From the NCBI GenBank assembly GCA_963790205.1, contig CAWBNQ010000005.1, positions 224,001-288,000 on the forward strand: DNA of 64,000 nt. Direction: 5' to 3'. Source of the stretch: Nitrospirota bacterium (GTDB taxonomy: Bacteria; Nitrospirota; UBA9217). Each line of letters begins with the position of its first letter. Positions within the stretch are counted from its first letter, which is position 1. Below the pieces are notes generated by a model. That model was not told the DNA's origin. It saw nothing but the letters and a program-made list of their open reading frames with translations, and ran no database searches. The position numbers and the translations under genes are program-made. Positions 7,457 to 34,355 of this stretch are shown piece after piece.

Positions 7457-8401
7457 TCACATACTGAGTTGCTTTTTGAATTCAGCTAGTGAATGAACAT
7501 AGCGTCGGCTACCAGCATTTTCAGCCGCTTGCAAAATAGCCTTGTCAGTAGATACAAGATGTAACTCTTTATTATCGTCACCTATCATCTGCCCAACGCC
7601 AAATGCGATCTGCATATCCCAAATCCAATTTCTTCGTTCCGGCTTATCTATATTACAACCTGTTTCGACAATCCTTTTTAGTATTTCGCGATAAAGCTGT
7701 ATTGATGTATTAAATTTACCTGAGATCCATTTGGCTTTGGCAGTTATATCGGTTGCGGATTCGTTTCGTTTTGCTTGAACCATTGCTTTTATCACGAAGG
7801 CATGCGCAATGAATGAAGGCATTCCCCTTGAATTAATAGACTCCAGCACAACATTGCGGGTTGATTTATCATTTTCAAGAGGAGCCCACCCGGTCGTCGC
7901 TGGCTTGAGCTGTTGAACGACATACTGCCACATATCTGATACGAATTGAGTTTCAATTTGATCGAGGTGTGACTTTAGCTGCTTGCATTCAATGATTCTT
8001 TTTTCGTCTAGGACACCAGGAGTATTCTCATATATATAACGTGAAAGCTTCGCCAATTGTTCAGTTGTAGTGCTTGATTCAGGAAGGATAATATTGTAAA
8101 GGGCCTTCAAAACCAATGATTCAGAATCCATTATTGTTTTGAGCTGTTCGCCTGAAGAAATAGAACACACATGGTGTTGCGCTCTAAGAGCTAAGCGACA
8201 TTCATCATAATCTGGATCAGTTGTGTCGGCCAAGTGAGCAGCAAGCTCCATCAACACAAAGGGACTTGCATACGCGCCTATATTACGCGATTTCATCGCA
8301 ACTAAGTATTTTTCTATTTCAGCGATCGGGTCTATAACACTGTTTTTGTCTGATATATCGCGATATACGTTTGTGTCGAGCACTACAGCAATGTTATTCA
8401 T
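7457..8401 (-). CDS. PIN-like domain protein (putative nuclease)
   Basis: VVLDTNVY at N-terminus, VLMEL, WDMQIA, LVSTDK: acidic PIN-type pattern with a large insertion. Confidence 0.65.
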   Translation of the reverse strand: MNNIAVVLDTNVYRDISDKNSVIDPIAEIEKYLVAMKSRNIGAYASPFVLMELAAHLADTTDPDYDECRLALRAQHHVCSISSGEQLKTIMDSESLVLKALYNIILPESSTTTEQLAKLSRYIYENTPGVLDEKRIIECKQLKSHLDQIETQFVSDMWQYVVQQLKPATTGWAPLENDKSTRNVVLESINSRGMPSFIAHAFVIKAMVQAKRNESATDITAKAKWISGKFNTSIQLYREILKRIVETGCNIDKPERRNWIWDMQIAFGVGQMIGDDNKELHLVSTDKAILQAAENAGSRRYVHSLAEFKKQLSM

Positions 8402-8476
8402 TTACTCCATCCTTTTGCTAATCAGGCAATTTAAATTAATTGTATTTAGTCGAGTCAAGAGAGCACCGATATGGGA

Positions 8477-8962
8477 CTAGAGTAAATACTCTGTCACGCT
8501 AACACCTTGCAACTTCTCAGGAAGGACATTTAGTGATAGAAAAAATCGAGCAAGTACCACGCGATGGTTGCCGTCTTCAATAAAGTAGTCGTTACCCACT
8601 TTAAAAAAACTCAGTTGATCCTTCGGCGTACGGCTAAGATAGTAGCCTGGATTTGAATGAAGCTCCTTTAACCTTTCCCAGCCTCTTTTCAGGCGACCTT
8701 CTAGCCCACTGAGAGTCCTATTGCAGTTGTCTTCCTCTGTGTAGAGACGATAATCCGAAGGTAAGAGCTCTAACCAGGAATAGCCAGCATAATCACCGTG
8801 TGTCGTGCCGACCACTGCGGATAGAGGTACTGTCCCAGCCTTTATACGGTTAGAGCTTTGATCAAGATATTTTGTGTGATCAAAACTCAATACCTTATTG
8901 AAGGCGAAGTCAGGTGGCCCTTGATTCTCAAGCAATTTGTGGATATCTGGATCGCATATCAT
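8477..8962 (-). CDS. ParB/Srx-like domain protein
   Basis: YFIEDGNHRV motif; ATG 8 bp after the ATPase stop. Confidence 0.6.
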   Translation of the reverse strand: MICDPDIHKLLENQGPPDFAFNKVLSFDHTKYLDQSSNRIKAGTVPLSAVVGTTHGDYAGYSWLELLPSDYRLYTEEDNCNRTLSGLEGRLKRGWERLKELHSNPGYYLSRTPKDQLSFFKVGNDYFIEDGNHRVVLARFFLSLNVLPEKLQGVSVTEYLL

Positions 8963-8969
8963 TAGTTTT

Positions 8970-11042
8970 TCATAGCGGCAAGGACCTGATAGCGCTTGCA
9001 TCCACTACCCCTATATTTCTGCCTAGAAGCATTTCGGAAGACTTCACAGCATTCAGCTTCTGCTTAACATACCGTTTAATTTGAAGTTCTTTTGGAGGAG
9101 CGGTCGTGGTCGTCAATACATACTGAAATGGACAGTCCGTAGGGCCGCCAAAGTGTTCTTGCAATGAAGCGACAAAACGAATAAAACTCTTGTAAATGCG
9201 CAGACCAAGATCAGCCTCACGCGGGCTATCATGGAGAAGGAAGCCGGGCATACATGCATTGTCGGATACAGTATTGTAGATAAGAGAAGCAATATCCGTT
9301 AGGAGCACAGACAACGTTTCTACGGCTTCACCGGTCATGGCTGGCCCGTGAGTGATCGAGAACGCCAATTCACGTTTATCGAGACTTACTTTGCCATCAT
9401 ATGTGCCAGAAGCAAGCACGGCTTTAACAGAAGCAGAGAAGATAGCAGCCAACAAATCACGACTTTCATTGTGTCCCGCAAGAAGCTTTGTCAGGCGCTG
9501 TTCCAACTCTTTAATTTGGCTGGCAGTGTTTTCCTGCTTTTTTCGGCACTCGTCAAGTTCCTTATTAGCGCCAGCCTGATCCCGTTTTGTGTACCCTGTT
9601 TCCAACCCCTCGTATTTCTGCCCTAGTTCTCTTAGCCGACCTTGTCTCCCCTGGATATCGGACTGTATATCAGTTCTCTTTACGTGATATTTGTGCCGCT
9701 CAGTTTTGTGAGCATCAATTTCTCTCTGAATATGCTGTTTTTGCAGGTCAAGATTCTGCTGAGCCTCTACGCGCTGTTCTTGCTTCTGTTTTATCACCTT
9801 TGCATCTTGATGCTGCTTGATCTCAAATAAATTACGCCTTCTCTTAACATGACCACAATCACGATAAAGCACACCTCCGAGCGAGCAAGTCTGATCGCTA
9901 TACTCGTCAAATGCATCAACATTCTTCTGATTTTTACTGAGGCTGGCATCCAATTCTAGAACTGCTGCCTTTTCCACATTAAACGTATTGTCAAGGATCT
10001 TAAGACGCGCCTCAAGCTGCAAAATCTTACCACCATAAAAATCGATCTTTTCTTGATTTGCCGTCTCTTCCTTTTTAAGCAGGGCAATCTCGGTTTCTAC
10101 TTTTTCGGTAGCATTTTTCGTTAGAAGGCTTAGATCAGGCAGTAGATTTCCAGAATGCAGCGGCATCTCAGATATTTGCCGTTCATCAGGCAATAAATCT
10201 TGAAGGCATTTTCGCAATTCTGAATCAAGTCGGTTTATCCAGTATTGCGGCTCTCGCTTGAGTTTTTCATATTCTTTTTCCAAGCTATCATAATTTTGCT
10301 TGAGCGTTACCAGATTCTCCTCGCCTTTCAGCTCATCAGGCAAGAATAAGCCTAACACCGTCCGCATCATGAACAAGGGGTCTGCTTTTGAAGACCTAAA
10401 GGCAGGGGTTTCTGATTCGCTACGAGGTGATCGCCATTCGTGGATATTTTGAAAACGAGACTCCTGGTCGCGTGTACACCATGAGAGGACATGTCCCCAC
10501 TGGATAGGCTCTCCAGCCCGAACAAAAGCGCCTGCGCCTGTACCAAGATCATCAAGCAGCCCATCGAGACCAAGAAGTTCAGTATACGTTTCCACGTATG
10601 CGGGCCTCGAACGGTCCTGTAGAATATCCTCAACGGCTGCGTCTTCTTTGATATATGAATTTCGACCCTTACCTATCGGCCGCAAAACTCCCCACTTTTT
10701 CCCCTTCACGTGGATTTCGGCTGCAATGTAGCCACTTGGAAAAGCATTCTGAATCAATTCGGTGTTGGCCCGTGTTCCATAAGTTTTTTCACCAAGAACA
10801 TATCGCACGAAGCGACAGAAAGTCGTCTTTCCCGCGCTATGACCGGATATTTCAGCCGATGGATCATCGTCCTCGGTCTCCTCTGCCCAAATGATATTAA
10901 GCCCACGTATAAGCTTAATATCACGAATCGTCACAGGATCAGGAGCAATCCGCTCAAAAATGGCTAGACGACTGATCCAGACATTGGGTTCCGTTTTTTT
11001 TGGTTTAAGTTTTAGATCTTTGAAAATATCCATATCCGTCAC
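8970..11042 (-). CDS. SMC/Rad50-like coiled-coil ABC ATPase (ABC-three-component / DUF2326-like)
   Basis: Walker A GHSAGKT, long coiled coil with central Cys pair, Walker B FLLHDSPREADL. Confidence 0.8.
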   Translation of the reverse strand: MTDMDIFKDLKLKPKKTEPNVWISRLAIFERIAPDPVTIRDIKLIRGLNIIWAEETEDDDPSAEISGHSAGKTTFCRFVRYVLGEKTYGTRANTELIQNAFPSGYIAAEIHVKGKKWGVLRPIGKGRNSYIKEDAAVEDILQDRSRPAYVETYTELLGLDGLLDDLGTGAGAFVRAGEPIQWGHVLSWCTRDQESRFQNIHEWRSPRSESETPAFRSSKADPLFMMRTVLGLFLPDELKGEENLVTLKQNYDSLEKEYEKLKREPQYWINRLDSELRKCLQDLLPDERQISEMPLHSGNLLPDLSLLTKNATEKVETEIALLKKEETANQEKIDFYGGKILQLEARLKILDNTFNVEKAAVLELDASLSKNQKNVDAFDEYSDQTCSLGGVLYRDCGHVKRRRNLFEIKQHQDAKVIKQKQEQRVEAQQNLDLQKQHIQREIDAHKTERHKYHVKRTDIQSDIQGRQGRLRELGQKYEGLETGYTKRDQAGANKELDECRKKQENTASQIKELEQRLTKLLAGHNESRDLLAAIFSASVKAVLASGTYDGKVSLDKRELAFSITHGPAMTGEAVETLSVLLTDIASLIYNTVSDNACMPGFLLHDSPREADLGLRIYKSFIRFVASLQEHFGGPTDCPFQYVLTTTTAPPKELQIKRYVKQKLNAVKSSEMLLGRNIGVVDASAIRSLPL

Positions 11043-14000
11043 CTATGCAGCAAGTGCATATTCTTTGTGTTGCTGATCAAAGATGTGGAGAATAGCCTGT
11101 TGTTCCGGCGATATTAACAAATCGGTCCTGATAGTTTTTATCTGTGCAAGTGCCTTAAGAGCGTATTTAACAACCGCTTCAGCCCCTTCTGGAAATATCT
11201 TCTTTACTTTGAGCAAGTCGAGCCCGCTGTTAATCGTCTGTTCAGCCTGTGCACGTATGATCACTACTGCTTTATGCTGCTCCAGATGACCACGGCAGTC
11301 ACTCCACCGGATTGACTGACCAGTTTCAACAAATAGTCCGCGTGGGGCAGATGCGACCGCCTTTCTGAAACCAGCATGATCTTTCTTATCAAGAAAGGTT
11401 TTGCACCACTCTGGATGAGTAGCCAGAAGTAGAGCGTCAAGGTGATCCATGCTTGATAGGACACCCGCGTATTCCACAATTGATAGCGCAGCTGCACATA
11501 TAGTCCTGTCTGAGACGTTTGCGGGATAGGATGTTGCGGCCAGAGCATCAACATCGATGTCCGGAAGCAATGGCAGGAAGAGACTCTCTGGTCCAACGAT
11601 CTTTACTTTTCGAACTTCCTTTTCTTCCCATAGGCCAGCATTTACCTCTTGCTGGTGAATTTCGTAATTCCGCTTTAAGAGACGCTTAAGTACTTCTTGG
11701 CGAGCACCAGGTGAAATAGTGAACCGAATACGGTCGTTTTCAGAGAGGGTATCGATCTCATAGAAATCATGCCCCAGACTGAGGTTGTTCCAGCCGTAGG
11801 CATCTCGGATAGCCTCATCTAGTTTTTGGTGTAGATAGCGCAGTTCTAGGATGCCTTTATAGCCCGCTTCGGATTCCGCAAGAGTCTTCATGCTGACCTT
11901 GGCAACCGATGAGGGAGTCATGCCTCGGTCATGAAACAGGTTGTATATATCAGTCAGACCCAGCCAAAGTTGACGCATGAGAGTGCTACGATGATCATGG
12001 TAGCGATTACCTATAGAGGTTAGTCCGGCGTTAGTCGTTTGCCACAGTCCTTCAGGAAATGGAAATGTATCAAAACATTTAGATGGCGAATAACGCAAAT
12101 CCTGTTTCAGTGCACCGCTGTATTTACGTGCCCAAGCTTCGTGAAAACCTGACTGGACGACTGCATAGAGATCCCATCGGTCGGTGGTGAAGACTTTTAG
12201 GGCATGAGAGAAAACGATATTTGTTGGGGCCGCAGAGAAGCTAAGGTACTTCGTTGTTGCTGCAGCAACAAAACAATGGGGTAGCCCTTTGATTTTTGAG
12301 GTCATTTCCATGCGCGGCCGAAGGAATATCCACCATTTGCCTTTAGCACCTTTATCATGCTCTTTTTCACGCATTGGCTTTACGCGGTCTTCGACAATCT
12401 TAATCGGTTCAGAATACTTCTGTGCTCTTTCTAAGGGCCAATCGAAAAAATTAATGATTTCTCGCTCAGGTTGCTGTTCTGGATGATTATTAAGTTCATG
12501 CCCGTTGATGATAGGAAAGATTACATCACGATTACGAGGATCCCTATCAATCATACGGCGCGCTTCGTCGTGGTTCAATAAAAAGCCGTCCCCCTGCCAC
12601 TTAGCTCCCTCGTAGAGTACGTCTGCATTCTGTTTCAAAACAAGGGGCGCATCGGTGTCCTGTGAATCCTCAAAATAGGCATTGATCACTGACACTTCCC
12701 GATTGTCAATGAAACATTTGCCCCTCCATTGCCCCTTATGAACGCCAACGAGAGAAACTATTATGTTAGCGCGACCAGGCCACTTAATGCCACGTACAAC
12801 AAAGTTTATTGCGCCCCCCTGAACTATCACCTGCTCAAGCCCGTCTTTTCTGATGTCACCATCCTTGATTGAGTTGGTTGTAATTAGGGCAGTGATGCCG
12901 TCTGGACTGAGCAGAGTGTAAATACGTCGAACGAAATACGCTACCAAATCGCTCAATCCGGTCGGGGCATACTCCCACTTGACGTAATTGCAGAAAGAAT
13001 AGCCGTAAGTACCGCTCAGATGGGTTCCGCCCAAATACGGCGGGTTACCAAGAATGCAATCGAAACCGCCTCGTTCAATGATGTCTGGAAATTCTAGAAA
13101 CCAGTGGAAGAAACGTTTACCATGAGCTATCGACCAAGCCTCCGCAGTCGATTGTCCCTGAGGATGACGCTCTCCAGACCAGTAGAGACGGAAATCGCTA
13201 TCGGTGGTTAGTTTTGGCTGGTTTTCAGTCGTTTTGGGCAAGTAAAACTGAGCAATAGGAATGGCTGCGATTTGTTCGAGCAGTATGGCGTCAGTACTAT
13301 TTGTAAACTCTATATAGCGCTGCTTCTTAATGTCGAATTCGGAAGGTGTCCGATCAGGCAAATTAGAAAGCTCACGCCAACGAGTTAGGACGGCATCACG
13401 ATGCCTCAGAATTTCCGAAGAGTAATTGAGTGTTACCTGCTTTATATTTGCGCGATCTGATTTATTGCGCCTGCGGAATGCCACTGATATGTCTTTGTCA
13501 TCACCAGGCATGGTGATGAATGCCTCATCAGGCACGCCTCTAATGACGTCCTCCCAACGAGCATAGCCGACAATTGCATTGCCGCACTTGATATGATGAT
13601 CAAGGAAGTTGAGTGGCTCTCCAGGGTTGTGGGCTTCCAGCCAAAGGGCAACTTTGCAAAGTTCCACCGCGAGTGGATTCAAGTCCACACCGTAGATACA
13701 TTCACGGATTACGTCCCGAACAGCTGTGCGAAAGGCCGCTGGTGATGGTTGCTCCTCACCTGTGCGGACAGCAGCCAGTTCCGTAGCAATTCGCCGGGCA
13801 GCAGCCAGCAGGATATGACCGGATCCACAAGAGATATCTGCCACACGTAAGGAAAGCAACGCTTTTTCACGATCCGATTCCTTGAGCTTGTCGGCAATAA
13901 GATAATCAAGGGAATGCTTGATTAAAGGTTGAACCAGATCATCCGGTGTGTAGTGGGAACCGGTAACAGCGCGTTGATCGCCCGGCGCGAAATCGAACTC

Positions 14001-15326
14001 CACCACGCCTTCGCTTTGAATAAATACGGGTTTATATTCCAGTAGCCCCTCATAGACTGAGCCAAATTCTTCGACATTGAGAGCGGCGTAGTTGACGCGG
14101 ATCACCTGACCTGTGTCAGGATGCTGGTAAAGACCAAGCGAACGCAGACAGCCGAGGAGCACATCATTGCCGAGGGTGCAGCCACCGAGTTGACCGATGG
14201 CAAAGGGGCTGAACAGGTCCCCTGCCAACGGTGCGATTCCAAGTTTTTGACCAGGACCACCGGCTTCAAAAAGACGAAAAGTAGTCAGCAATGAAAGCCA
14301 ATGGTCATTCTTGCGGCGGTCGGCTAAATAACGCTTCTCGGAGAGGCGGCGCAGGCGCTGGAGGCTGTAGTAGTGCTCGTATATATCTCGTTTAGAGGCG
14401 TCCGACTTTACGGGAAAGACAAGGCCGCGCTCCTCGATCACCATCAGGAAGAGGAGGCGATAGATCAGCCGTAGCAGGTGTTGGTAGTAGGCATCAGGTT
14501 CCAGTTCGTCGGAGACCACTGTTTGACGAAGTGAATCGTTGGCGGGATGAGCAAGAAACCCATTTGCAAATTCACGGATAGCACTCTCGACCGCACGGCT
14601 CAAACCATCGCGGATGCGCGCGCCGGAATCAAGGGAGTCTTGGTGATAACGCTCAATAATGCACTCTGCCGAAGTTTCGGGCGAGACAGGCAGCCTTGAT
14701 GCATGCAACAGTCGATAAAGAACAGCAAAATCGGCAAACAAACCGTCGTTGAAGATCCTATCAAGATCGAACTCCAGGTAGGTCAGTTTGACAAGTCGCG
14801 AACTATCACGCAGCAGACGAAGCACTCGGCCGTTTGTTACAAGACCGTACAGTCCATCCGTAAGGTTGAGATACTCTTGCACCATTCCATGCGCAGACAT
14901 GCGTAGGACGGCTTTTTCGGGCTTCCTATCCAGCCCCGCCGGCTCGCGATAACCGACGATATGAACTGGGATACGTCCACGATTACTAAGACGGTGGGAG
15001 ATAGCATAAGTCTTACCATTCAATTCCACGCTCTTTTGCTGGTATTCAAGCTCGTAGCCAAGCAAAGAAAGAAACGGGACTACCCAGAGACTGCGCGTTT
15101 CCGTCGTGGCTGGATTATCGACTTTGACCGCTTCCAATTTTCGCTGAAAAATACGCCAATAGTCCTGTGCATCAGCCCAGGCACGGACAATTTCATCTTT
15201 CACCTTTCTGGATGAGTCGAAACCAAAGTCTAGCGGACGTTGGCCGTTAGCTTCTTCGAGCCGAGTCAGAATGTCAGGTGAAAGGATGGCTCCTTCTATG
15301 CGGATGCTTGGATAGTTCATAGGCAT
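11043..15326 (-). CDS. Eco57I/type IIG-like N6-adenine DNA methyltransferase (DrmMI-like) with TRD and extra C-terminal domain
   Basis: GSHYTP, DISCGSGHIL (SAM binding), GVDLNP, GNPPY; N-terminal QEYLN..TNG; LRYSPSKCFDTFPFP TRD end. Confidence 0.9.
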   Translation of the reverse strand: MPMNYPSIRIEGAILSPDILTRLEEANGQRPLDFGFDSSRKVKDEIVRAWADAQDYWRIFQRKLEAVKVDNPATTETRSLWVVPFLSLLGYELEYQQKSVELNGKTYAISHRLSNRGRIPVHIVGYREPAGLDRKPEKAVLRMSAHGMVQEYLNLTDGLYGLVTNGRVLRLLRDSSRLVKLTYLEFDLDRIFNDGLFADFAVLYRLLHASRLPVSPETSAECIIERYHQDSLDSGARIRDGLSRAVESAIREFANGFLAHPANDSLRQTVVSDELEPDAYYQHLLRLIYRLLFLMVIEERGLVFPVKSDASKRDIYEHYYSLQRLRRLSEKRYLADRRKNDHWLSLLTTFRLFEAGGPGQKLGIAPLAGDLFSPFAIGQLGGCTLGNDVLLGCLRSLGLYQHPDTGQVIRVNYAALNVEEFGSVYEGLLEYKPVFIQSEGVVEFDFAPGDQRAVTGSHYTPDDLVQPLIKHSLDYLIADKLKESDREKALLSLRVADISCGSGHILLAAARRIATELAAVRTGEEQPSPAAFRTAVRDVIRECIYGVDLNPLAVELCKVALWLEAHNPGEPLNFLDHHIKCGNAIVGYARWEDVIRGVPDEAFITMPGDDKDISVAFRRRNKSDRANIKQVTLNYSSEILRHRDAVLTRWRELSNLPDRTPSEFDIKKQRYIEFTNSTDAILLEQIAAIPIAQFYLPKTTENQPKLTTDSDFRLYWSGERHPQGQSTAEAWSIAHGKRFFHWFLEFPDIIERGGFDCILGNPPYLGGTHLSGTYGYSFCNYVKWEYAPTGLSDLVAYFVRRIYTLLSPDGITALITTNSIKDGDIRKDGLEQVIVQGGAINFVVRGIKWPGRANIIVSLVGVHKGQWRGKCFIDNREVSVINAYFEDSQDTDAPLVLKQNADVLYEGAKWQGDGFLLNHDEARRMIDRDPRNRDVIFPIINGHELNNHPEQQPEREIINFFDWPLERAQKYSEPIKIVEDRVKPMREKEHDKGAKGKWWIFLRPRMEMTSKIKGLPHCFVAAATTKYLSFSAAPTNIVFSHALKVFTTDRWDLYAVVQSGFHEAWARKYSGALKQDLRYSPSKCFDTFPFPEGLWQTTNAGLTSIGNRYHDHRSTLMRQLWLGLTDIYNLFHDRGMTPSSVAKVSMKTLAESEAGYKGILELRYLHQKLDEAIRDAYGWNNLSLGHDFYEIDTLSENDRIRFTISPGARQEVLKRLLKRNYEIHQQEVNAGLWEEKEVRKVKIVGPESLFLPLLPDIDVDALAATSYPANVSDRTICAAALSIVEYAGVLSSMDHLDALLLATHPEWCKTFLDKKDHAGFRKAVASAPRGLFVETGQSIRWSDCRGHLEQHKAVVIIRAQAEQTINSGLDLLKVKKIFPEGAEAVVKYALKALAQIKTIRTDLLISPEQQAILHIFDQQHKEYALAA

Positions 15327-18202
15327 GCCTCGGCATTCCCGCCATCAGGGAGGAGAATGTAAACACCGAGAAGATCCATTGGCAATACCGGATAAACGAC
15401 CTGAAAACGTTTTGCATCCATAAGTGAACTGAAACGTTCATGGGATTCGACGAGCCGCTTTGATTGTTGCTCGGCAACCTTATCGAACTCTCCTCTTAAA
15501 TTATCAAGAAGTTTAAGTTCGTTTTCCAAGAAACCGGTGCGCGCCTGTGGGGTGAGTTCGGAAGACGCACGGGCCTCGGCCAACAAAACCCTTGCCTGGC
15601 CGTGTTCGAGAAACTCCTTGTCCTGCGGTGTGCCGCGCCATCCCCAGAGCAGCATTTCCTCAGCTACGATCTGGTGTTCACCTTTGCTCTGCTCTATCAC
15701 GTTGCGACATCGGAAAAGCAGCAATGTAGTCTTGGTCTTTACCTGCTTGGTGCGAATGATGGCTGCGCGCGCCGCACATTTATCCACGCGAGCGAGGGTA
15801 TTGGCCATGACAAGCTGACAAAGTTGTTCTACAAAACGGTGGTTACGCCCCAGGTAATGGTAGCCATCGGACGTGGGTGACCGGAAGCTTACTTTGACTG
15901 GATCGCCTTGTGGCAGTAAATCCCTCAACTGGGGCGACATGTTACCCATGACGATTCGGTAACCCTTGGCATCCTTGGTGACCTGCACACCAAGCAGGTT
16001 GTTCAGAACAGAGGTCACGAACTCTTCCACTGCTTTGGGATCGCCTATGGCTTCATCCATCTCACGAAGGTCAGCTTCGATCTCTTGAGCCTTAATGGCA
16101 TTCTGGGCGAAGATGCTACGGGATGCCTTTTCTCTCTCTGCGGCTTCGTCAACTTTGCGGGTGACACTTGCCTTAGCCGAGGCGGCTTCATCAAAACTAC
16201 TGAAGTCGAATTGGATCTGGTGCTTATCACGTTTTTTTTCGATCTGGCGATCAGGATTGAGCAGCAAGGCCTGGGTAATCGTGTCTATGATACTTTGAGA
16301 ATCCTCTGGAAAAGGAACATTGATGCCGGTAGCGCGCTTGATCTCGCGAACCTTGCGTAAGAGCACATCGAGAACGATGCCGTCTATCGGGTTATCCGCC
16401 CCGTAGAGTAGACAAGCCTTTACCTTCGGGGCCATCTGGCCGAATCGATCCACGCGGCCTTCTCGTTGCTCAAGCCGGTTCGGATTCCATGGCAAGTCGT
16501 AATGGAGAACACCGGTAAAGTGTTCTTGCAGATTGATACCTTCGCTCAGGCAGTCGGTTGCAATTAAGATGCGCAACTGAGACTTTCCCATTGCATCTAT
16601 GTGCTGCTTGCGCAGCTCGTCAGGAAGTTCACTCGTTATGACTTGAAGGTCGAGCTTCGGATACTTCTTTTTGAGCGCCGTTTCGAGTTGTGCGCCGATA
16701 TAGTTAGCTGTGGCGATATAACGGCAGAAAACAACTGGGTTGAAGCCTTGCTTTAACCAGTCTTCCAGAATCAGTTCGGCTGAAGCAAGTTTTTGGTCAT
16801 CTTTGATCGAGCTCAATTGCTGCAGTTGCTGGGAGAAGTACCGCATGCGTTCGCGTTGGTGTTTTGTCCAATCATTCCGCTCGATGACCTGAGTGGGCGC
16901 GTTGTCACCTTCGAACCCAAATTCAGTATCACGAACTGGGTTTTCCTCAAACGTTTCCTCACCCGCTAAGGCAGTTTCTGCGTCATCTTTCGCAGCAGAT
17001 GCGAGGTTAGAAAGCCTGGTGTTGAGCATCTCGATACCAGCAGCGGGGCTAGACATCACACCACGCAATAGTGCGAGTGCAGTCCAATATTGGACCCGCT
17101 TCTGGACGCCTCGTTCGGAGTCCGGAGCGATTAGCTTACGAGCAAAGTCGAGGATTTCGTCAAAAAAGTGAGAATAGCTGGTTGAGAGGTCATAGGCCCA
17201 CTCGAAAGCTTCACGCTCAGGGAATGGCGTGTCTTCCCCCATCCATTTTTCGACATCGGCCCGCTTGCGCTGAACAAAGTGACGTGCCAGATCGCGGCGC
17301 TGTGCTTGCGAGGAACTGGGAAGGTCAATCATCTCGAATTCCGGACTGAGCAGGCCGAGCAACGAATGAAATTCCTCGGGCTTCCCGCTGTGCGGTGTGG
17401 CGGTGAGCATGATAAGCTGCTGGTTCGGCTTCTCGGCGATTCTGCTGACAAGATGGTAGCGTTGTTGCTGGCTGGCAGAAGCGCCGGTAGGCCGTGCGCA
17501 GGTATGGGTTTCGTCCACGATCACCATTTCTGGACACTGCTCGACAAATACATCGCGCCTGGTATCGGACTTGATGAAATCAATGCTGATGACTTGGTAA
17601 GGATAGTAATCATAGACACTTGTGTCACCCTGTATCTGCCGGTCGAGTCGTGCCTGGGTGTTGGAGCGAATGATGACCGCCTCAATATCGAGCTTAGCAC
17701 GAATCTCGGCCTGCCACTGTTCGCAGAGATGAGGCAGACATATTACGGCAAAGCGTTTGATCTTGCGTCGCTCCAACAGTTCTTTAACGATGAGCAACGC
17801 CTCTACTGTCTTTCCTACACCGACATCATCGGCAATGAGCAAACGTACCGATTCCTGACGCAAGGCCATGATAAGCGGCACCATCTGGTAGGAACGCGGC
17901 CGGAAGGAGAGTTTTGCCAGGGCGCGAAACGGGCCGGCGCCGTTGCGAAAAGCCAAACGAGCGGAGTCATAGAGCAAGCGGGCTGTGCTGATATCTCCGA
18001 GGTCCAATGCCCCTGGCGACGGAAAGCTCGCATCCTCGGGTTGGTCGGCTTCAATGCCCAGCGGCAGATAAATACCTGCGGTTTCATCGTCAGAGCCACC
18101 AAGCGGTTTGACGATCAAAAGATCTTTATCATCTGATGGGAGGACGATCCAGTCGCGTCCACGGAGGGAGACTAACTTTCCCGGTTGAAGTTGTACTGTC
18201 AT
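15317..18202 (-). CDS. SNF2-family helicase (DrmD-like)
   Basis: LLIADDVGVGKT, DETH, TATPHSG, SEGINLQ, WNPNRLEQREGRVDR. Confidence 0.9.
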   Translation of the reverse strand: MTVQLQPGKLVSLRGRDWIVLPSDDKDLLIVKPLGGSDDETAGIYLPLGIEADQPEDASFPSPGALDLGDISTARLLYDSARLAFRNGAGPFRALAKLSFRPRSYQMVPLIMALRQESVRLLIADDVGVGKTVEALLIVKELLERRKIKRFAVICLPHLCEQWQAEIRAKLDIEAVIIRSNTQARLDRQIQGDTSVYDYYPYQVISIDFIKSDTRRDVFVEQCPEMVIVDETHTCARPTGASASQQQRYHLVSRIAEKPNQQLIMLTATPHSGKPEEFHSLLGLLSPEFEMIDLPSSSQAQRRDLARHFVQRKRADVEKWMGEDTPFPEREAFEWAYDLSTSYSHFFDEILDFARKLIAPDSERGVQKRVQYWTALALLRGVMSSPAAGIEMLNTRLSNLASAAKDDAETALAGEETFEENPVRDTEFGFEGDNAPTQVIERNDWTKHQRERMRYFSQQLQQLSSIKDDQKLASAELILEDWLKQGFNPVVFCRYIATANYIGAQLETALKKKYPKLDLQVITSELPDELRKQHIDAMGKSQLRILIATDCLSEGINLQEHFTGVLHYDLPWNPNRLEQREGRVDRFGQMAPKVKACLLYGADNPIDGIVLDVLLRKVREIKRATGINVPFPEDSQSIIDTITQALLLNPDRQIEKKRDKHQIQFDFSSFDEAASAKASVTRKVDEAAEREKASRSIFAQNAIKAQEIEADLREMDEAIGDPKAVEEFVTSVLNNLLGVQVTKDAKGYRIVMGNMSPQLRDLLPQGDPVKVSFRSPTSDGYHYLGRNHRFVEQLCQLVMANTLARVDKCAARAAIIRTKQVKTKTTLLLFRCRNVIEQSKGEHQIVAEEMLLWGWRGTPQDKEFLEHGQARVLLAEARASSELTPQARTGFLENELKLLDNLRGEFDKVAEQQSKRLVESHERFSSLMDAKRFQVVYPVLPMDLLGVYILLPDGGNAEACL

Positions 18203-21200
18203 CGCACCTTCCTGAAAATATCCGGACGGGCTGCTATTTTCTCGGCCAGGCTATCCCGATAGTAGTATACCCAGACTTCATCGCCGCGGGCAATGATGGA
18301 CTGACGCTTGGATTCATCATCCTCCCGAACCTGCGGTTCATCGTGGGGGGTGCCGTCGCAGAAGACCCAGATACGCGGTTCGTAGTAAAAGTCCGGTTGC
18401 ACATAAATGCCATCAACACGCTTCTGAGCTGCGTCGGGCAATCGCAGGCCATTCTGATAGAGGTAATCCAGGAACTTTCGCTCTGTCGACGATGTGGGAT
18501 CGAGTCCTCGGGAGATGGTTTGATACTGGTCCTCGTAGCTGCCGAATCCTGTATTCGTCTGGATCTCAATATTACAGATGCGCAATTTCTCAAGAGCGTC
18601 CTTGATGAGATGTCGGTCTATGATCTTATGGTCGCGCTGGTTGTAGTAACTCAGAAGATCGTCATAGCTTGCCGGTCCTTTGTAGTTCTCATCGTCGTAT
18701 CGGCACAGAGTGATCGCCTGCTCTACGACTTTATGAAAAGCCTCCACGTCTTCAACAAATTGCGAAAGGATACCAAGGCTGCCTTCTGCTGCTTCATAGA
18801 GAAGGATGTTAGGCGCTTCAGGATCACCCACAGTGACCACACCGATCTCATTGGGCTCGGCCTGGAACACGCTTTCGATGGCGCGCTTCAGCGCATGCTG
18901 CAAGGTGATGACACCCTCGGGATTCAGTCCAAGTGGCTGTATCGGCTCGATATGCAGTGCATCGGCCAAATTCGAGGTCCAGAGCTTAACGAGTCGGAAT
19001 TCCTCTCTTGGATTTTCCTCCGGATCCGGCATTGAGTCTCGCCAGTCGCCGGATACCAATCCGATGGGGAAACCCTCGGCCTGTCGCGATCGCCACTGAT
19101 AATTGACATGAACCAGACGAGCCGCAGGCACGTAACGAAGATTCAGGAAGTTATTTTCAGCCGTACGCGCCGCGGCTTTACGCACGCGCTCCAGATGGCC
19201 GCCATCAACGGAGAAATAGGTCCTGATATTGTACCCGCGGGATACCCGCTCTTCCTCTTCGCAAGAAATCCGGTCAACCTCTTCGGCGCGCGACTCGGCC
19301 ATTTCCAGCAGATCATGAAGATGTTCCTTATTTGCGTTATCAGCGAGGTTGCAGCCGGTGAAAGGACAGATTTCGAGATCTTTCTGCTCATCCGTCAGGA
19401 AGTACCCGGCTTTTGTGCTGATCTTCACCTCGGTCAGTGCGGACTCCGCGTCTTGGACCACTAATTGGGTAACTTTGTATTTACGGCCGTTATGGTAGAT
19501 ACGGTTTAGTGGACCGAACTCTCGCATAGCAATGGCGCGCGGACGCGAGATGAACTCGCCGGAGGCATCGCTGGTGGGTAGGAAGATACGAAGCGGCAAT
19601 CGGGTGAAATTGTACCCGGGCAGAAACCCTTCCGAGGCCAGGTATCTATAGGGATAAAATTCGGATAATTCTGTTGACCTGCCAAGGTCGTTACGCAGAA
19701 GATCAAGCTGGCGGGTGGCCTGATCCTGGTTTCTCTTTTGTTTTTTGTAGTCGTCACTGCCCAGACCAAGTGTACCACTTTCGATCTTCTGTGTAGCCTT
19801 TGTAAGGATCGTTCTAGCCGAGCGATATAGTTTTCTCCAACGGTCAATAGCTTCGTTAAGATGATCAGCCAGTTTTGACAAGTTATGTTCGACCCACTGA
19901 TCCGAATACCAGCTTGCAGCCTTTGTCTCGAGCTCGGGAGCAAAATCCCTGATCACTCTCCTGAATTCTGCCTTGAGCGTGTTGAACTGGTTCGGCTGAA
20001 TGCTGAGGCCGGAGCGAACCGCAGGTGTAAGCGGCATCTTATCGTTGTCATCAACGATGAACCGCATAATAGACGGCCGGGCTTCTCCCTGAGCTTCCAG
20101 ACCAGGCAGGCCGATCTCAGATACGGTTAGGGCGTTCAGGTGCGTCAGCAATAATTCGCGATTACAGAGATCGAGACGAGGAGCCTGTACCACTCCGGCT
20201 ACGAGTTCAGCCTGGTGCTGAAAGTAGTGACGGTCATGAGGCGAGTAGCTTGAGCAGTAGGTGAATACCAGCGCACCTTGTCCGCTTCGCCCCCCACGGC
20301 CTGACCGCTGGGCGTAATTCGCAGGATTGGGAGGCGCATTGCGGAGATGCACAACATTCAGACCGCCAATATCGATTCCTAATTCCATGGTTGGCGAACA
20401 AAACAATGCGCTTACCGATTCACTTCGAATACGCTTTTCATCAAGCTCCTTCTTGGCTTCGTCGAGATACCAATCGGCACGAAAGCGGTCTTCCCTATCC
20501 AGACGGGCTTCGGTGTTCAATTGCCCAGTATGATCTTCAGCTCGCAGCCTTTTAGTCAAAGAGAAGTCGCGCCGGTACATATCTCTGAAAAACGCATTCG
20601 GCCTGGGTGTTTGGTCCTTGTAAGAGCGCCGCTTTATAACGTCGGACTTTACTGTTTTGCCATCGCCGAGCTTCCAAACGATCTTCTCGATCTTGAGGCG
20701 ATAAATCGGTATTTCTTCGTTCTTATCGCTGCGTGCGAGTTGAGACTTGAGATAATCCGCCTGTTCCAGCTTCGTCATCAGCTGGACAATGAAGTTCCGA
20801 TAGTGGTCGCCCTTAAGATTAATCTCCAGCCCACGTTGCCGGACATAGAGTTTAATGAACTTGCCCAGCGCACTGGCCGGTCCCATGCTTTTTGAAAAGA
20901 GTTTTGCGGAGCGGTGCAGTGGCTCATAGCGGATGACAAAAGGTTCCCGTAATCGCTCTTTCTGGTCCAAGGTCCAGGGAGGACGCAGCATCTCAATGAA
21001 CTGCTTTTCGTTTTCTCTGATCGCATTCTGTGTAAGATAGTTCTCGCTATGGATGGCGTATTCAAGGCGGAAGAAATCGAGAATCGTGCAGACAAACTCT
21101 CTGCGGTCGGCATGACTTAAAGCGCTCAAAAGCGGAATGTCCCGCCAGAAGGTATCCTCTGCAGCGACTTCATCCAAGTCCAGATATTCTATGGATAGCA

Positions 21201-23364
21201 AAGCGCATTGCTCCAAGTTCGGCAGGATGATTCGCCAGCTTCGCCGTAGATCCGCAATAGCGCGGTAGAATAAGTAAGTCTGGAAGCACTGCTCATATCG
21301 TCGTCTGACATTTGCCAGCGGCGGCTCTACGTTGGGGGTAGAATAGTCCAGAAACGACAGGCCAAGCGCTCTAAATACCGCCTCGCCAAGATTGGCATAC
21401 GTGAGGGTATTCCCGGAAGCTTCGTGAAGAGCTTTGTAAATGCCGGCACGAAGGCGGACCACTTGCACGAAATCGTTGAAATGACCGGCCTGGAGCGCGG
21501 CATCTTGTCTGTTGTCGGTAAAACTCAGCAGCTTTTGATCTTTCGGACGATATCCGGCATCATTCAGCTGATTAAGGATCGAGAACGCCATAATGGTCGT
21601 TGAGGTGCTGCGTCCCTCACTGCCCAGTTTTGTCAGCTTTGTACCTTCGTTCGTTTTCGTGTCAAAGAAGACACCGCCTGTTGGGTCAAAAAGCAGTGGG
21701 GCCTTCATGAACCATCCCCACCATTTCAGAGGTTTGGTTTCAGAACAATTTCCAAGCTCATCAAAATGGAGCTTAACGGGAAACAAGGTTTTCTTTTTCG
21801 AATCCGGAACCGGTCCGTTTTTTGTCATTCTCAGCCAGGAGTCCGGCAAAAATTCGAAGTCCTCGGCTAGTTCCCAGACATCTTCGCCGACAATGAGATA
21901 GCCATCTGTCGCTTCTTCATCTTCTTCTGTTTTTTCCCGAAACTCTCGCGGTTCCAGCCGATTGCCGACTCTGGACACACATATGAACGCATGTCCCGTG
22001 GCCCGGCTGAACACATTTGGAAAGAGAGGCTTTTTGTCCCCTTCGTCCTTTTTGAAGATACCCGGCTCCAGAGTAACATAGCGATTCTCGTCCTGATCGA
22101 GTGTAGTATAGACCGATCCTGTTTGAGAGATGAACTGATGCAGTTTAAAAGGTAGGATCGTGTAACGTTGCCTGGCTTCCTGCATTCGTTTGTTCACGAT
22201 GCTGATCCACTGCATAAGATCGACGAGGAACTGTCTGCAGATCGTTTCTGACAACCTGGTTTCTTGCATCAGCATAGCGACGATCGTGCCGATCCGCTGG
22301 GGGGTGCGCCGAATAAGATGGCCATCGTGCGTATCCAGCGCGACATTATTTTCAATCCAGACAGCAACGGGGTTGGCCTTCAAACGCTCAATGTCGTCTT
22401 CTGCGTTAATACCCGCCTTTATGGCTGCGGCGAGCTCCGCGCCCGATGGCAATCTACCGGAGAATGACACCGAACGGGCCAAAGTCTCGTTTATGACTTG
22501 TTCCGGCGTAAATGGCTTACCAAAAAGCGTAGTGGCAACTTTAGCGACCTGTTCGCGTTGCGAAGCGGGACTCCCGACGGAAACCATAGTGGCCGAGGTA
22601 CCGATGCAGGTCACCTCTCGGCTGCATTTGGAGCGGATGCGGCGGATCAACATAGCCACATCAGCGCCTTGGCGTCCACGGTAGGTATGGAGTTCGTCGA
22701 AAACGAGAAAACGCAGGTTGCTGTATATGGAATCACGAATGGAACGCTCCCGAACGCGAGTCAGGAGCAATTCCAGCATCATATAGTTGGTCAGGAGAAC
22801 GTGCGGAGGATTCTCGCGCATCTTTTGGCGTGCCTCTTCCTTCTCCTGTCCGGTATATTGCCCAAAGGTTATTGGGAATCCTCTCGCGCCGCTTTCGTAA
22901 TTAGCTTTGTAGCGGTTAAACTCTTCCGATTGAGAATTGATCAGAGCGTTCATCGGATAAACCACGATGGCTGTTACGCCCGATGTCCCGGGATGGGAGA
23001 GCAAATGGTGGAAGATCGAGCCTATATAGGTCAGAGACTTGCCGGATCCCGTACCAGATGTGACGATGAAATCCCTGCCTGCGGTCCCAAGACGTATTGC
23101 TTCAACCTGGTGCCGGTACAGTGTATATCCTTTAAAGATGTCCGCCGTGTCGGCATGTAAGGCGCCGGACCGTGCAAGATCCGAGACGCTGCCAGACATC
23201 TCGTATGCGGGGTTAAATTGCAAGAGAGGCTCGGGCCACAGTTTACCAACGCGAAGATCCCCTTCTACTACCGCCCGTAAAGTCGGATCGGCAATATTAA
23301 GGAAGCTGCGAATATAGGTCGCGTAGTCCGAAACGATATGCGAGTGCGTCTTGAAAACGTTCAT
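18199..23364 (-). CDS. large DEAD/DEAH helicase with DUF1998-like domain and C-terminal Vsr/DUF559-like nuclease
   Basis: GTGSGKS, DELHTY, TSATM, SPTMELGIDIG, YAQRSGRGGR; LYEAAEGSLG...LLSYYNQRDH; PDFYY...FCDGTPHD. Confidence 0.88.
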   Translation of the reverse strand: MNVFKTHSHIVSDYATYIRSFLNIADPTLRAVVEGDLRVGKLWPEPLLQFNPAYEMSGSVSDLARSGALHADTADIFKGYTLYRHQVEAIRLGTAGRDFIVTSGTGSGKSLTYIGSIFHHLLSHPGTSGVTAIVVYPMNALINSQSEEFNRYKANYESGARGFPITFGQYTGQEKEEARQKMRENPPHVLLTNYMMLELLLTRVRERSIRDSIYSNLRFLVFDELHTYRGRQGADVAMLIRRIRSKCSREVTCIGTSATMVSVGSPASQREQVAKVATTLFGKPFTPEQVINETLARSVSFSGRLPSGAELAAAIKAGINAEDDIERLKANPVAVWIENNVALDTHDGHLIRRTPQRIGTIVAMLMQETRLSETICRQFLVDLMQWISIVNKRMQEARQRYTILPFKLHQFISQTGSVYTTLDQDENRYVTLEPGIFKKDEGDKKPLFPNVFSRATGHAFICVSRVGNRLEPREFREKTEEDEEATDGYLIVGEDVWELAEDFEFLPDSWLRMTKNGPVPDSKKKTLFPVKLHFDELGNCSETKPLKWWGWFMKAPLLFDPTGGVFFDTKTNEGTKLTKLGSEGRSTSTTIMAFSILNQLNDAGYRPKDQKLLSFTDNRQDAALQAGHFNDFVQVVRLRAGIYKALHEASGNTLTYANLGEAVFRALGLSFLDYSTPNVEPPLANVRRRYEQCFQTYLFYRAIADLRRSWRIILPNLEQCALLSIEYLDLDEVAAEDTFWRDIPLLSALSHADRREFVCTILDFFRLEYAIHSENYLTQNAIRENEKQFIEMLRPPWTLDQKERLREPFVIRYEPLHRSAKLFSKSMGPASALGKFIKLYVRQRGLEINLKGDHYRNFIVQLMTKLEQADYLKSQLARSDKNEEIPIYRLKIEKIVWKLGDGKTVKSDVIKRRSYKDQTPRPNAFFRDMYRRDFSLTKRLRAEDHTGQLNTEARLDREDRFRADWYLDEAKKELDEKRIRSESVSALFCSPTMELGIDIGGLNVVHLRNAPPNPANYAQRSGRGGRSGQGALVFTYCSSYSPHDRHYFQHQAELVAGVVQAPRLDLCNRELLLTHLNALTVSEIGLPGLEAQGEARPSIMRFIVDDNDKMPLTPAVRSGLSIQPNQFNTLKAEFRRVIRDFAPELETKAASWYSDQWVEHNLSKLADHLNEAIDRWRKLYRSARTILTKATQKIESGTLGLGSDDYKKQKRNQDQATRQLDLLRNDLGRSTELSEFYPYRYLASEGFLPGYNFTRLPLRIFLPTSDASGEFISRPRAIAMREFGPLNRIYHNGRKYKVTQLVVQDAESALTEVKISTKAGYFLTDEQKDLEICPFTGCNLADNANKEHLHDLLEMAESRAEEVDRISCEEEERVSRGYNIRTYFSVDGGHLERVRKAAARTAENNFLNLRYVPAARLVHVNYQWRSRQAEGFPIGLVSGDWRDSMPDPEENPREEFRLVKLWTSNLADALHIEPIQPLGLNPEGVITLQHALKRAIESVFQAEPNEIGVVTVGDPEAPNILLYEAAEGSLGILSQFVEDVEAFHKVVEQAITLCRYDDENYKGPASYDDLLSYYNQRDHKIIDRHLIKDALEKLRICNIEIQTNTGFGSYEDQYQTISRGLDPTSSTERKFLDYLYQNGLRLPDAAQKRVDGIYVQPDFYYEPRIWVFCDGTPHDEPQVREDDESKRQSIIARGDEVWVYYYRDSLAEKIAARPDIFRKVR

Positions 23365-23573
23365 GGCAAATCCAGAATCCCTGATACATTCTTGAGTTCT
23401 TTTGCGGTGAGATTGCGGGACTGCTCGGTCGTCTTCCAGGGGAAGTTTTCAAGCAGCTCCCTCGCTTCAATGGAGAGGGCTTCGGCGAGGCTCTTGGGAT
23501 CGTGGAATTGCGCCCAGTCACGCTCGTTTCGGTATGAGATGATCTTTTGCTGGACGGATGAGAACTCAGCCAT
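23361..23573 (-). pseudogene. MazG-like nucleotide pyrophosphohydrolase, N-terminal half only
   Basis: ERDWAQFHDPKSLAEALSIEARELLE; the E(L/I)AD helix is missing; stop overlaps the helicase ATG; GGAG RBS. Confidence 0.75.
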
Positions 23574-25283: not shown

Positions 25284-25294
25284 CGACCTTTCCG

Positions 25295-33413: not shown

Positions 33414-33462
33414 GTTTTCCTCCAAAGATAAGGGTGATCGTCGTTAACTGGTTTATTCGTGT

Positions 33463-34320: not shown

Positions 34321-34355
34321 GTTTCTGTTCCTCCCGCTGTTTTTTTGCATAAGCC

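Follow-up and report, generated by a model that had tools for sequence, protein, structure and literature searches.

Results

Gene Organization of the Locus

We analyzed a 64,000-nucleotide stretch of DNA from a Nitrospirota bacterium (assembly GCA_963790205.1, contig CAWBNQ010000005.1, positions 224,001 to 288,000 of the forward strand), which we refer to as the window. According to the list of open reading frames (ORFs) and the sequence, positions 7457..23573 of the window hold seven ORFs, all on the minus strand, that lie head-to-tail and abut one another. They encode, in order, a 70-aa protein fragment, a helicase-nuclease, an SNF2-type helicase, a DNA methyltransferase (MTase), a coiled-coil ATPase, a 161-aa protein, and a PIN-like protein (Table 1). 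A first-pass annotation, made from the sequence alone, had proposed that these seven co-oriented and mostly abutting genes form an undescribed defense operon, and every junction that it claimed can be read directly in the sequence.

The 70-aa ORF (ATG at 23573, stop at 23361) and the helicase gene (start at 23364) share an ATGA overlap, and a second ATGA overlap (18199-18202) joins the helicase gene to the SNF2 gene. The SNF2 and MTase genes overlap by 10 nt (15317-15326), which becomes an ATGA overlap if the second ATG of the MTase is used. The TAG of the MTase gene directly abuts the GTG of a 690-aa frame at 11043/11042. The stop codon of the ATPase gene (8970) is followed, after an 8-nt gap, by ATG 8962 of the 161-aa gene, and a 75-nt gap precedes the gene for the PIN-like protein. 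Comparison with homologs places the start of the ATPase most probably at ATG 11033 (687 aa) and not at GTG 11042 (690 aa), because the database copy (P0001) is 687 aa long and homologs begin MDI. The 161-aa protein most likely starts at ATG 8962, and not in the 174-aa frame that reaches 9001, because its homologs cover 91% of the longer frame. A scan for promoters and terminators gave results at the level of shuffled sequence (21 versus 18.6 and 15 versus 17.5, respectively).

Table 1. Features of the operon and the ORF that follows it, with positions in the window
Feature	Position	Strand	Basis
70-aa ORF, MazG-like nucleotide pyrophosphatase fragment	23361..23573	-	PHROG 3301, E 6.9e-7
ArmC-like YprA/DruE-family helicase-nuclease, 1721 aa	18199..23364	-	Pfam, PADLOC, PDB
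ArmA-like BrxHII/DrmD-type SWI2/SNF2 helicase, 961 aa	15317..18202	-	Pfam, PADLOC, NCBIfam
ArmB-like PglX/MmeI-type N6-adenine MTase, residues 1-1229 of 1427	11640..15326	-	Pfam, PADLOC
MTase C-terminal domain, residues 1230-1427, conserved core from ~1255	11043..11639	-	tblastn, alignment
Coiled-coil SMC/Rad50/LmuB-like ABC ATPase, 687 aa	8970..11033	-	Motifs, AlphaFold, Foldseek
161-aa protein, C-terminal G-N-H-R motif, "ParB-like" by motif only	8477..8962	-	Homologs, motif
PIN-like protein, 314 aa	7457..8401	-	Model, VIA-align
73-aa co-oriented ORF, 38 nt past the PIN-like gene; doubtful as a gene	7197..7418	-	ORF list

The Three-Gene Core Matches ARMADA Type I

The helicase-nuclease contains the Pfam domains DEAD (E 1.2e-25), Helicase_C (E 1.4e-8), and MZB (the MZB/DUF1998 zinc domain; E 3.2e-6). 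It gives partial matches to the PADLOC DruE profiles, the best of which scores 261 bits over residues 78-424, and its matches among PDB sequences are to 9tu7_Y (2.8e-40) and 9wae_A (1.1e-23), both large helicases, and to Bacillus subtilis YprA (6znp, 4e-22). The last ~100 residues carry a DUF559/Vsr-like motif in which D118, D130, G131, and H134 (alignment numbering) are invariant in 16 relatives; this region resembles the endonuclease-like protein 3hrl_A only weakly (E 0.34) and has no match in Pfam. The second protein contains SNF2-rel_dom and Helicase_C, and its best PADLOC match is to PDLC02853 ("DpdE"), at 606 bits over the full length, followed by DrmD (279 bits) and HmaA (166 bits); against the NCBIfam DrmD profile NF038317 it scores 303 bits, below the cutoff of 610. 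Copies of this protein that are 37-80% identical lie between the helicase and MTase genes of related loci. The MTase contains Eco57I (2.2e-21), MmeI_TRD (1.1e-15), and MmeI_Mtase domains, and it matches the PADLOC DrmMI profile PDLC02643 at 709 bits. The first-pass description of this part of the operon, in which a 1721-aa protein unites helicase, DUF1998, and nuclease and a DrmD-like SNF2 protein and a DrmMI-like MTase come next, agrees with the Pfam, PADLOC, and NCBIfam matches for the helicase, DUF1998, SNF2, and MTase parts, and the nuclease is a candidate by its conserved motif. As that description also said, none of the seven proteins has a PLD domain in Pfam.

The order of the three genes is that published for ARMADA Type I, in which a YprA homolog with a C-terminal Vsr-type nuclease is followed by a BrxHII-like helicase and a PglX-like MTase (PMC12458937; Bell et al., bioRxiv, September 2025). 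The helicase is 33% identical, end to end over 1691 columns, to WP_258597965.1, which Table S1 of PMC12458937 enters as "ARMADA Type I helicase." On the strength of these sequence matches we assign the three-gene core to ARMADA Type I, and hence to an already described system. The first-pass annotation, which had called the operon undescribed, itself named a complete match to a named system as grounds for giving up that view, and ARMADA Type I is such a match for the core.

An ATPase Gene Is a Conserved Fourth Component of a Subset of ARMADA Type I Loci

We collected loci related to the operon by scanning metagenome contigs with the ATPase alignment, which gave at least 570 confirmed stretches; 63 loci were kept, and with the only genome locus from a single-protein search, the set comprised 64 loci. 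An MTase match lies directly upstream of the ATPase in 40 of the 41 loci that contain the N-terminus of the ATPase and more than 1 kb of upstream sequence, so the recurrence of the ATPase downstream of such MTases, which had been proposed as a check, is confirmed. The exception (L062) has a truncated, unassigned ORF upstream of the ATPase, and its downstream genes match those of another locus, L061. MTase, SNF2, and helicase genes in the order seen in the window are present in 12 of the 14 loci that extend 9 kb or more upstream. The remaining pair, L047 and L048, which scarcely differ from each other, have an Eco57I+DUF7008 MTase and no ARMADA trio. The MTase and ATPase genes of related loci, which come from several phyla and from plasmids, are separated by ~10-20 nt or overlap. 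Among genomes of another phylum, 3 of 401 contain the ATPase, and one (G680) has the full four-gene set.

ATPase relatives are present on nine plasmids in PLSDB, and the three that we examined (from Caballeronia, Paraburkholderia, and Mesorhizobium) all carry helicase, SNF2, MTase, and ATPase genes. Table S1 of PMC12458937 classes the helicases of all three plasmids (WP_165989520.1, WP_165190042.1, and WP_258597965.1) as "ARMADA Type I helicase." The same table includes PKN33_03785, which is four locus tags from an ATPase homolog, PKN33_03765.

The tight linkage of the first four large genes is far beyond chance, because it recurs in dozens of loci; the linkage of the two tail genes is not. 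The ATPase is thus a conserved and widespread fourth component in a subset of ARMADA Type I loci, and we consider it very probably an integral partner of the MTase. In a term search of the main text of PMC12458937, "ATPase" occurred once, in the title of a reference, and "SMC" and "ABC" did not occur; the four supplements searched, Tables S1 and S2 among them, contain neither "ATPase" nor "Rad50," and "SMC" and "ABC" only in locus tags, species names, and accessions, while the figures, which may draw a fourth gene, lay outside the term search. We found no description of the ATPase with ARMADA-type genes in the portions of the literature searched, which included PMC12839542, 10.1101/2025.09.30.679545, and PMC8565338; the text available for MADS (10.1101/2023.03.30.534895) is without domain detail, and the classification of ABC ATPases by Krishnan et al. 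(2020) is outside the set searched and may bear on this point. We conclude that the ATPase, together with the MTase tail domain described below, defines a real variant of ARMADA Type I that is undescribed in the literature searched.

The ATPase gene also lies behind MTases of other kinds, namely a Type ISP enzyme (G768) and the Eco57I+DUF7008 MTases of L038, L047/L048, and L065. The G768 ATPase is a 26%-identical member of the family. Only 8 nt separate its gene from the preceding one, which encodes a 1790-aa restriction-modification enzyme of Type ISP with Mrr_cat_2, helicase, ISP coupler, Eco57I, and Type_ISP_C domains (L075, G768:C37, 9256-16672). The element that carries it is mobilizable, with an integrase, a DUF927 primase, and a Mob_Pre relaxase. 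We know of no ATPase partner for Type ISP enzymes. L047/L048 (1-16861) is a Pgl-like array that encodes a 1259-aa double-kinase protein, a HipA-like kinase, an Eco57I+DUF7008 MTase that has the tail domain, and the ATPase, and that ends in a GmrSD_N protein and then a PLD protein; it contains neither SNF2 nor YprA helicase genes. At L046 (9194-9556), the last ~120 residues of a 70%-identical ATPase are encoded in the middle of a 13-kb contig that has no MTase upstream, and this fragment is probably a decayed remnant.

A C-Terminal Domain of the MTase Accompanies the ATPase

The C-terminus of the MTase is formed by the METHYLTRANSFERASE tail domain, which is ~170 aa long, matches no Pfam or PHROG family, and is referred to here as the C-terminal domain (CTD). 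Its conserved residues include an S-S-M-D-H-L-D stretch. In tblastn searches, the CTD was found in 38 ATPase-linked loci, where it always ends just ahead of the ATPase; these include three non-ARMADA loci (L038, L047, and L048). The same searches did not find it in L056, L059-L061, and L063-L065, which have ATPases that are only 27-33% identical, or in G768, and in these loci the CTD may have diverged beyond detection.

We compared these loci with a set of seven helicase loci from the phylum of the window (L066-L072), six of which include the MTase. The ATPase is absent from all six MTase-containing loci, and tblastn found the CTD in none of these six. The closest comparison is with L066, in genome G310, which has a helicase 72% identical and an SNF2 protein 80% identical to those of the window. 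Its MTase shares 75% identity over residues 1-764 and 62% over residues 765-1229, and at 1270 aa it is without the last ~170 residues. In L066 (G310:C1, 12844-19477), five other ORFs follow the shortened MTase in place of the CTD and ATPase; an M78 peptidase domain is encoded by one of these, and another weakly matches a pPIWI-associated nuclease. Two other ATPase-less loci have a GmrSD_N (DUF262) gene between the helicase and SNF2 genes (L069, 11739-13601; L072, 6126-7919). A 687-aa downstream ORF in L070 was considered as an analogue of the ATPase and proved to be unrelated (hhalign probability 0.18%).

We then compared pairwise identities among the window and 11 loci, leaving out the duplicates L021 and L048 and loci with less than 75% coverage of any part. 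Over the 66 pairs, the identity of the ATPase correlated with that of the CTD at r = 0.95, and the correlations with the N-terminal part of the MTase were r = 0.48 for the ATPase and r = 0.41 for the CTD. The GC content at third codon positions (GC3) is 0.57-0.58 in the helicase and SNF2 genes, 0.50, 0.47, and 0.42 along the MTase gene, and 0.43 in the ATPase gene. Because the CTD is co-inherited with the ATPase, the identities of the two correlate, and GC3 falls toward the ATPase, we conclude that the ATPase and the recognition/tail region of the MTase are exchanged as a unit. The CTD is likely a docking domain for the ATPase, and direct contact between the two would be the most economical reading of these results.

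These results could also be explained if the ATPase were a general accessory of Eco57I-family MTases that controls methylation only, by loading the MTase, by making it processive, or by preventing runaway self-methylation and self-restriction, and that has no part in ARMADA restriction. At least three other kinds of MTase precede the ATPase (the Type ISP enzyme of G768, the Eco57I+DUF7008 enzymes of L047/L048, whose neighbors are PglW-like and HipA-like kinases, and that of L065), and the CTD accompanies the ATPase in L038 and L047 too. The MANTIS system shows that an ATPase can be needed for methylation itself (10.64898/2026.09.23.753747), but the MANTIS MtsABC complex is needed for both methylation and restriction, and the two activities are not separable in the present data. 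In addition, an architecture like that of SMC and Rad50, with a long coiled coil, is seen more typically in proteins that clamp DNA or sense its ends than in enzyme loaders. We judge a role confined to methylation to be quite improbable, and we prefer a role for the ATPase in the ARMADA operon as a whole, as set out below.

The ATPase Resembles SMC, Rad50, and LmuB at the Level of Fold

Apart from coiled-coil noise, the ATPase had no family match in Pfam, PADLOC, NCBIfam, or PHROGs, and a search of PDB sequences with its profile likewise returned only such noise. Its homologs, which are ~685 aa long, form more than 371 clusters at 90% identity; the 120 that were listed are 48-64% identical, are without a Pfam domain, and are all named "hypothetical." An alignment of 18 sequences (numbered as in the 690-aa frame) revealed an invariant Walker A motif (G67-H-S-A-G-K-T73), an invariant R-D-Q-E at 191-194, an invariant signature-like M-S-G-E at 569-572, and an invariant Walker B Asp605 within L-L-H-D-S-P-R-E-A-D-L. 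A pair of cysteines, Cys386 and Cys396, is also invariant and lies in the middle of the coiled coil with the spacing C-x9-C.

The AlphaFold model of the ATPase (predicted local distance difference test score [pLDDT] 77.4, predicted template modeling score [pTM] 0.63) has a split ABC head and a long antiparallel coiled coil with the Cys pair at its apex. The best Foldseek matches in the PDB are to B. subtilis YydD (9a6c_A, 3.7e-17) and Lamassu LmuB (9uxh_F, 8.9e-15; 9hqu_A, 1.7e-12), with LmuB chains matching at E values from 8.9e-15 to 1e-9. Further matches are to SMC heads, Rad50, JetC, and MukB, and the matches to YydD, LmuB, SMC, Rad50, and JetC together span 1e-17 to 1e-5. The PADLOC profiles gave no LmuB match, and JetC alone at E 0.01. 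RefSeq labels the plasmid ATPases either "chromosome segregation protein SMC" or "DUF2326 domain-containing protein," the latter including one that is 33% identical. The earlier designation of the protein as an SMC-like ATPase therefore holds at the level of fold, and the predicted model identifies it as SMC/Lamassu-LmuB-like.

The Tail Genes Occupy a Variable 3' Slot

The first-pass annotation had also placed the ParB-like (161-aa) and PIN-like proteins in the system. We found neither gene in any of the 64 related loci (tblastn, E <= 1e-5), and phmmer (E <= 10) gave no relative of either in a set of 161 ORFs that lie past the ATPase. Their proposed co-occurrence with the core is not seen, and the conserved unit consists of four genes followed by variable cargo. 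When 66 of the downstream proteins were searched against Pfam, the domains found were HNH, Fic, HEPN/RES, PLD, SIR2+HerA, OLD-TOPRIM+UvrD, GmrSD, Schlafen/AlbA, M78 peptidase, reverse transcriptase, McrB-like AAA_5+EVE, and others. GmrSD-type genes are found behind the ATPase in L047, L051, and L065, as is a DUF262 gene in the Caballeronia plasmid (L077). The DUF262 and PIN proteins of this plasmid were considered as relatives of the tail genes and rejected, as no relation was detectable (for the 161-aa protein against the DUF262 protein, hhalign probability 0.25%) and the likeness is in domain class only.

The 161-aa protein has 9 close homologs and 170 cluster representatives at E <= 1e-3. 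It matched nothing in Pfam, PHROGs, NCBIfam, or the profile search of PDB sequences, and no Pfam domain, ParB_N included, covers the matching stretch in any of the 40 homologs scanned. In PADLOC it had no family, and the two tail proteins together gave only a weak match to "Orf5" (E 0.0011). The GNHR motif for which the protein had been called ParB-like is present, but no library supports the family assignment.

The 314-aa protein has 15 homologs, in which D9, E52, D92/E94, D262, and D286 are invariant, and no Pfam, PADLOC, or PHROG family. In the predicted model (pLDDT 87.9, pTM 0.85), a PIN core is split by a helical insert of ~170 residues. Foldseek returned nothing at E <= 1e-3 for this model. 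When it was compared with 48,161 chains by VIA-align, PIN domains occupied nearly all of the top 24 rows, with Z scores of 5.9-7.8 (that is, below 8) and 109-152 aligned residues; the top matches were 3ix7_B (Z 7.8) and 1o4w_A (Z 7.6, 113 aligned residues, root-mean-square deviation 2.9), and the others include Nmd4, SMG6, Utp24, and VapC. The model is in line with the PIN protein named in the first-pass annotation and gives moderate support to the view that the protein is PIN-like and a predicted nuclease. One homolog each of the ParB-like and PIN-like proteins lie on contigs of equal length (2690 bp), as do one homolog each of the ParB-like protein and the ATPase (5535 bp), which hints that the two tail genes may recur together once and the 161-aa gene once with an ATPase. 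The ParB-like and PIN-like genes are cargo in a variable 3' slot, and we predict that they form a separate small nuclease module that is not part of the core.

Genomic Setting of the Operon

Because the GC content of the operon is low (0.42-0.52, versus 0.55-0.59 in the flanks) and it is bordered by transposase, recombinase, and ArdC/RadC genes, we place it in a mobile island. IS481/IS3-type transposase genes lie on one side of it at 23857-26696; beyond them are an IS91 Y2 transposase gene (27986-29179), a tyrosine recombinase gene (29201-30058), a separate PIN gene (30469-30888), and genes for DUF6573, the ArdC anti-restriction protein, and RadC (within 33042-34778). No tRNA was found in the window. 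Just past the other end of the operon is a gene for a TPR-repeat protein (6035-6772, minus strand, GC 0.41), which has the same composition as the tail genes and may be part of the same inserted segment.

In such a setting, the seven genes might come from two or three systems that have nothing to do with one another and happen to be neighbors in a defense island, with the ATPase functionally unlinked to ARMADA. The mobile, low-GC character of the island, with its IS481, IS3, and IS91 transposases, tyrosine recombinase, and ArdC/RadC genes, is in keeping with this explanation, as is the shift in composition along the operon, and the tail genes are indeed unlinked. For the ATPase, however, the explanation is contradicted by the MTase found directly upstream in 40 of 41 loci, from several phyla and from plasmids, and by the co-inheritance of the CTD with the ATPase. 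We regard a chance association of the ATPase with ARMADA as highly improbable.

The 70-aa ORF at the head of the operon covers only positions 47-107 of the 169 in the PHROG 3301 ("pyrophosphatase") profile. It has no Pfam match, and no homolog of it lies upstream of the helicase in the seven related loci L066-L072. It is probably outside the defense system, and it resembles a gene that was truncated during insertion or recombination of the operon. The 73-aa ORF at the other end is without a Pfam or PHROG match.

Proposed Function of the ATPase

The reading that we prefer is that the locus is an ARMADA Type I operon with an ATPase, encoded by the fourth gene, that likely binds the ~170-residue CTD of the MTase, and we consider this reasonably probable. 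That the ATPase acts specifically as a loader or clamp is a more tentative proposal, on which we are almost evenly divided and lean slightly against. The MTase would mark adenine in host DNA at an asymmetric motif, as expected from its family. Incoming DNA without this mark would be attacked by the SNF2 motor and the helicase-nuclease in a manner that spares the cell, as shown for ARMADA Type II. The ATPase would probably be a dimer joined at the apex that bears the Cys pair, perhaps closed in the manner of the Rad50 hook. Bound to the tail of the MTase, it could serve as an ATP-gated DNA clamp that loads the recognition module of the MTase onto DNA or holds it there and that couples recognition of an unmodified site to release of the nuclease. 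Such a role would be comparable to the loading of the MTase MtsC by MtsA in MANTIS and to that of BrxC in BREX.

Several points weigh against this proposal. The ATPase is present in none of 400 other genomes of the phylum of the window, 8 of which have full-length helicase homologs, and most of the ARMADA Type I loci sampled are without it; because 8 genomes carry the helicase and none carries the ATPase, the ARMADA core works, or at least persists, without this protein. Type I is itself a predicted system, as the experiments on phage protection in PMC12458937 concern Type II, in Escherichia coli. The Walker B Asp is followed by Ser and not by the usual catalytic Glu, so that hydrolysis may be slow or may rely on E609, to judge from the sequence. 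Mantel tests were significant for all three pairs of identity matrices, and the contrast between the ATPase-CTD pair and the others therefore rests on the size of r among 12 related sequences. Finally, in 41 of 51 loci the first ORF past the ATPase reads in the same direction, often within 150 nt, and the downstream genes could be functionally tied to the ATPase.

This last point belongs to a different explanation, in which the ATPase is the sensor of an abortive module like Lamassu or the ABC-three-component systems, the gene downstream of it (in the window, the ParB-like and PIN-like pair) encodes the effector, and the module is a backup that kills or arrests the cell once first-line restriction by ARMADA has failed. 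This is the idea of a backup abortive arm in the first-pass annotation. After YydD, the best solved look-alikes of the ATPase are LmuB chains, and LmuB is an abortive-infection sensor. A protein-language-model atlas places the ATPase beside unnamed clusters of 670-680-aa proteins and then beside DUF2326 "ABC-three component" clusters (0.96-0.97), and the 33%-identical plasmid homolog is named for DUF2326. The downstream ORFs include effector domains (HNH, PLD, RES, Fic, SIR2, and the PIN-like fold), and the HNH gene of the Mesorhizobium plasmid overlaps the ATPase stop codon by 4 nt. On the other hand, Pfam DUF2326 matches only 1 of 18 members of the ATPase family (E 0.02), and PADLOC finds no LmuA, LmuC, or middle component in the window. 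No adaptor is common to the downstream genes, which formed only small clusters when the 161 ORFs were compared all against all by BLAST, and many of these genes are complete known systems (OLD-TOPRIM+UvrD, SIR2+HerA, and GmrSD). The next ORF is on the opposite strand in 10 of the 51 loci, and transposon genes come next in G680 and in the Paraburkholderia plasmid. A free-standing sensor, moreover, would not need to co-evolve with the CTD of the MTase. An abortive sensor is in our view unlikely, and we retain the interpretation of the ATPase as the MTase-bound fourth component of the ARMADA operon.

A broader possibility, which we consider rather doubtful, is that the ATPase and a CTD grafted onto Eco57I-family MTases form a portable module that makes ATP-gated DNA-clamping machines of ARMADA Type I, Type ISP, and Pgl-like kinase systems, with a 3' slot for interchangeable effectors, which in the window would be the PIN-like nuclease and the small GNHR protein. 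If this were true, the module would be a hybrid of restriction-modification and Lamassu-type sensing.

ARMADA was named only in 2025. On the question of how such methylation-based systems discriminate self from non-self and control their nucleases, recent studies of MANTIS and BREX suggest ATPases as loading and checkpoint devices. Here, a sizeable unannotated family of ATPases is an obligate neighbor of PglX/MmeI-type MTases and co-evolves with a dedicated MTase tail. The CTD and the ATPase constitute a concrete and testable prediction of a contact between subunits, and G310 and the window provide a natural comparison with and without the ATPase, at 72-80% identity in the shared genes. The ATPase could serve as a marker with which detection tools might split ARMADA Type I into subtypes, and its presence beside a Type ISP enzyme suggests that the module is more general than ARMADA.

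Comparison with Known Systems

The operon resembles class 1 DISARM in its DrmD-like SNF2 protein, its DrmMI-like MTase, and a helicase with DUF1998. It differs in that helicase, DUF1998, and a putative nuclease are fused in a protein that is nearer to DruE than to DrmA, and in that there is no PLD protein DrmC; both NCBIfam cutoffs are missed (DrmA, 15 bits versus 950; DrmD, 303 versus 610). For Druantia (types I-IV), PADLOC finds no Dru component in the seven proteins besides the partial DruE.

The ATPase shares a split ABC head and an antiparallel coiled coil of comparable length with Lamassu LmuB, YydD, and Rad50/SMC; for YydD and LmuB the length is 586-653 residues. It is only 12-14% identical to these proteins, and its partner is predicted to be an MTase domain and not LmuA or LmuC, homologs of which, like those of a middle component, PADLOC did not find in the window. 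The Rad50 hook motif is CxxC, from which the C-x9-C at the apex of the ATPase differs.

The Hma system of PADLOC also combines an SNF2-type helicase, a methylase, and an ATPase. In that system, HmaB is a 5-methylcytosine (m5C) methyltransferase (PMC8565338), and the ATPase of the window has no HmaC match at E <= 0.01.

As in the window, MANTIS MtsA and BREX BrxC are ATPases encoded beside a BREX-type N6-adenine MTase, and MtsA is required for loading of the MTase MtsC onto DNA and for methylation (10.64898/2026.09.23.753747). These two proteins are AAA+ ATPases (DUF499/ORC-Cdc6-like) and belong to another P-loop class, so the likeness would be one of role and not of descent.

The closest relatives of the operon are the ARMADA systems. 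ARMADA Type II has the same SNF2 helicase, MTase, and YprA helicase-nuclease and also has a fourth gene, but its order is SNF2-MTase-YprA, and the fourth gene encodes a GajB-like UvrD helicase fused to a RelE-like domain and not an ABC ATPase (PMC12458937). The Type II system of E. coli (ArmA-D) protects against phage, requires all four genes, and is non-abortive (PMC12458937). ARMADA Type I has the same three genes as the window in the same order, and Type I helicases listed in PMC12458937 head loci that bear the ATPase. Set against most of the Type I loci sampled, which are without both, the operon in the window is distinguished by an additional 687-aa ATPase and a matching CTD on its MTase.

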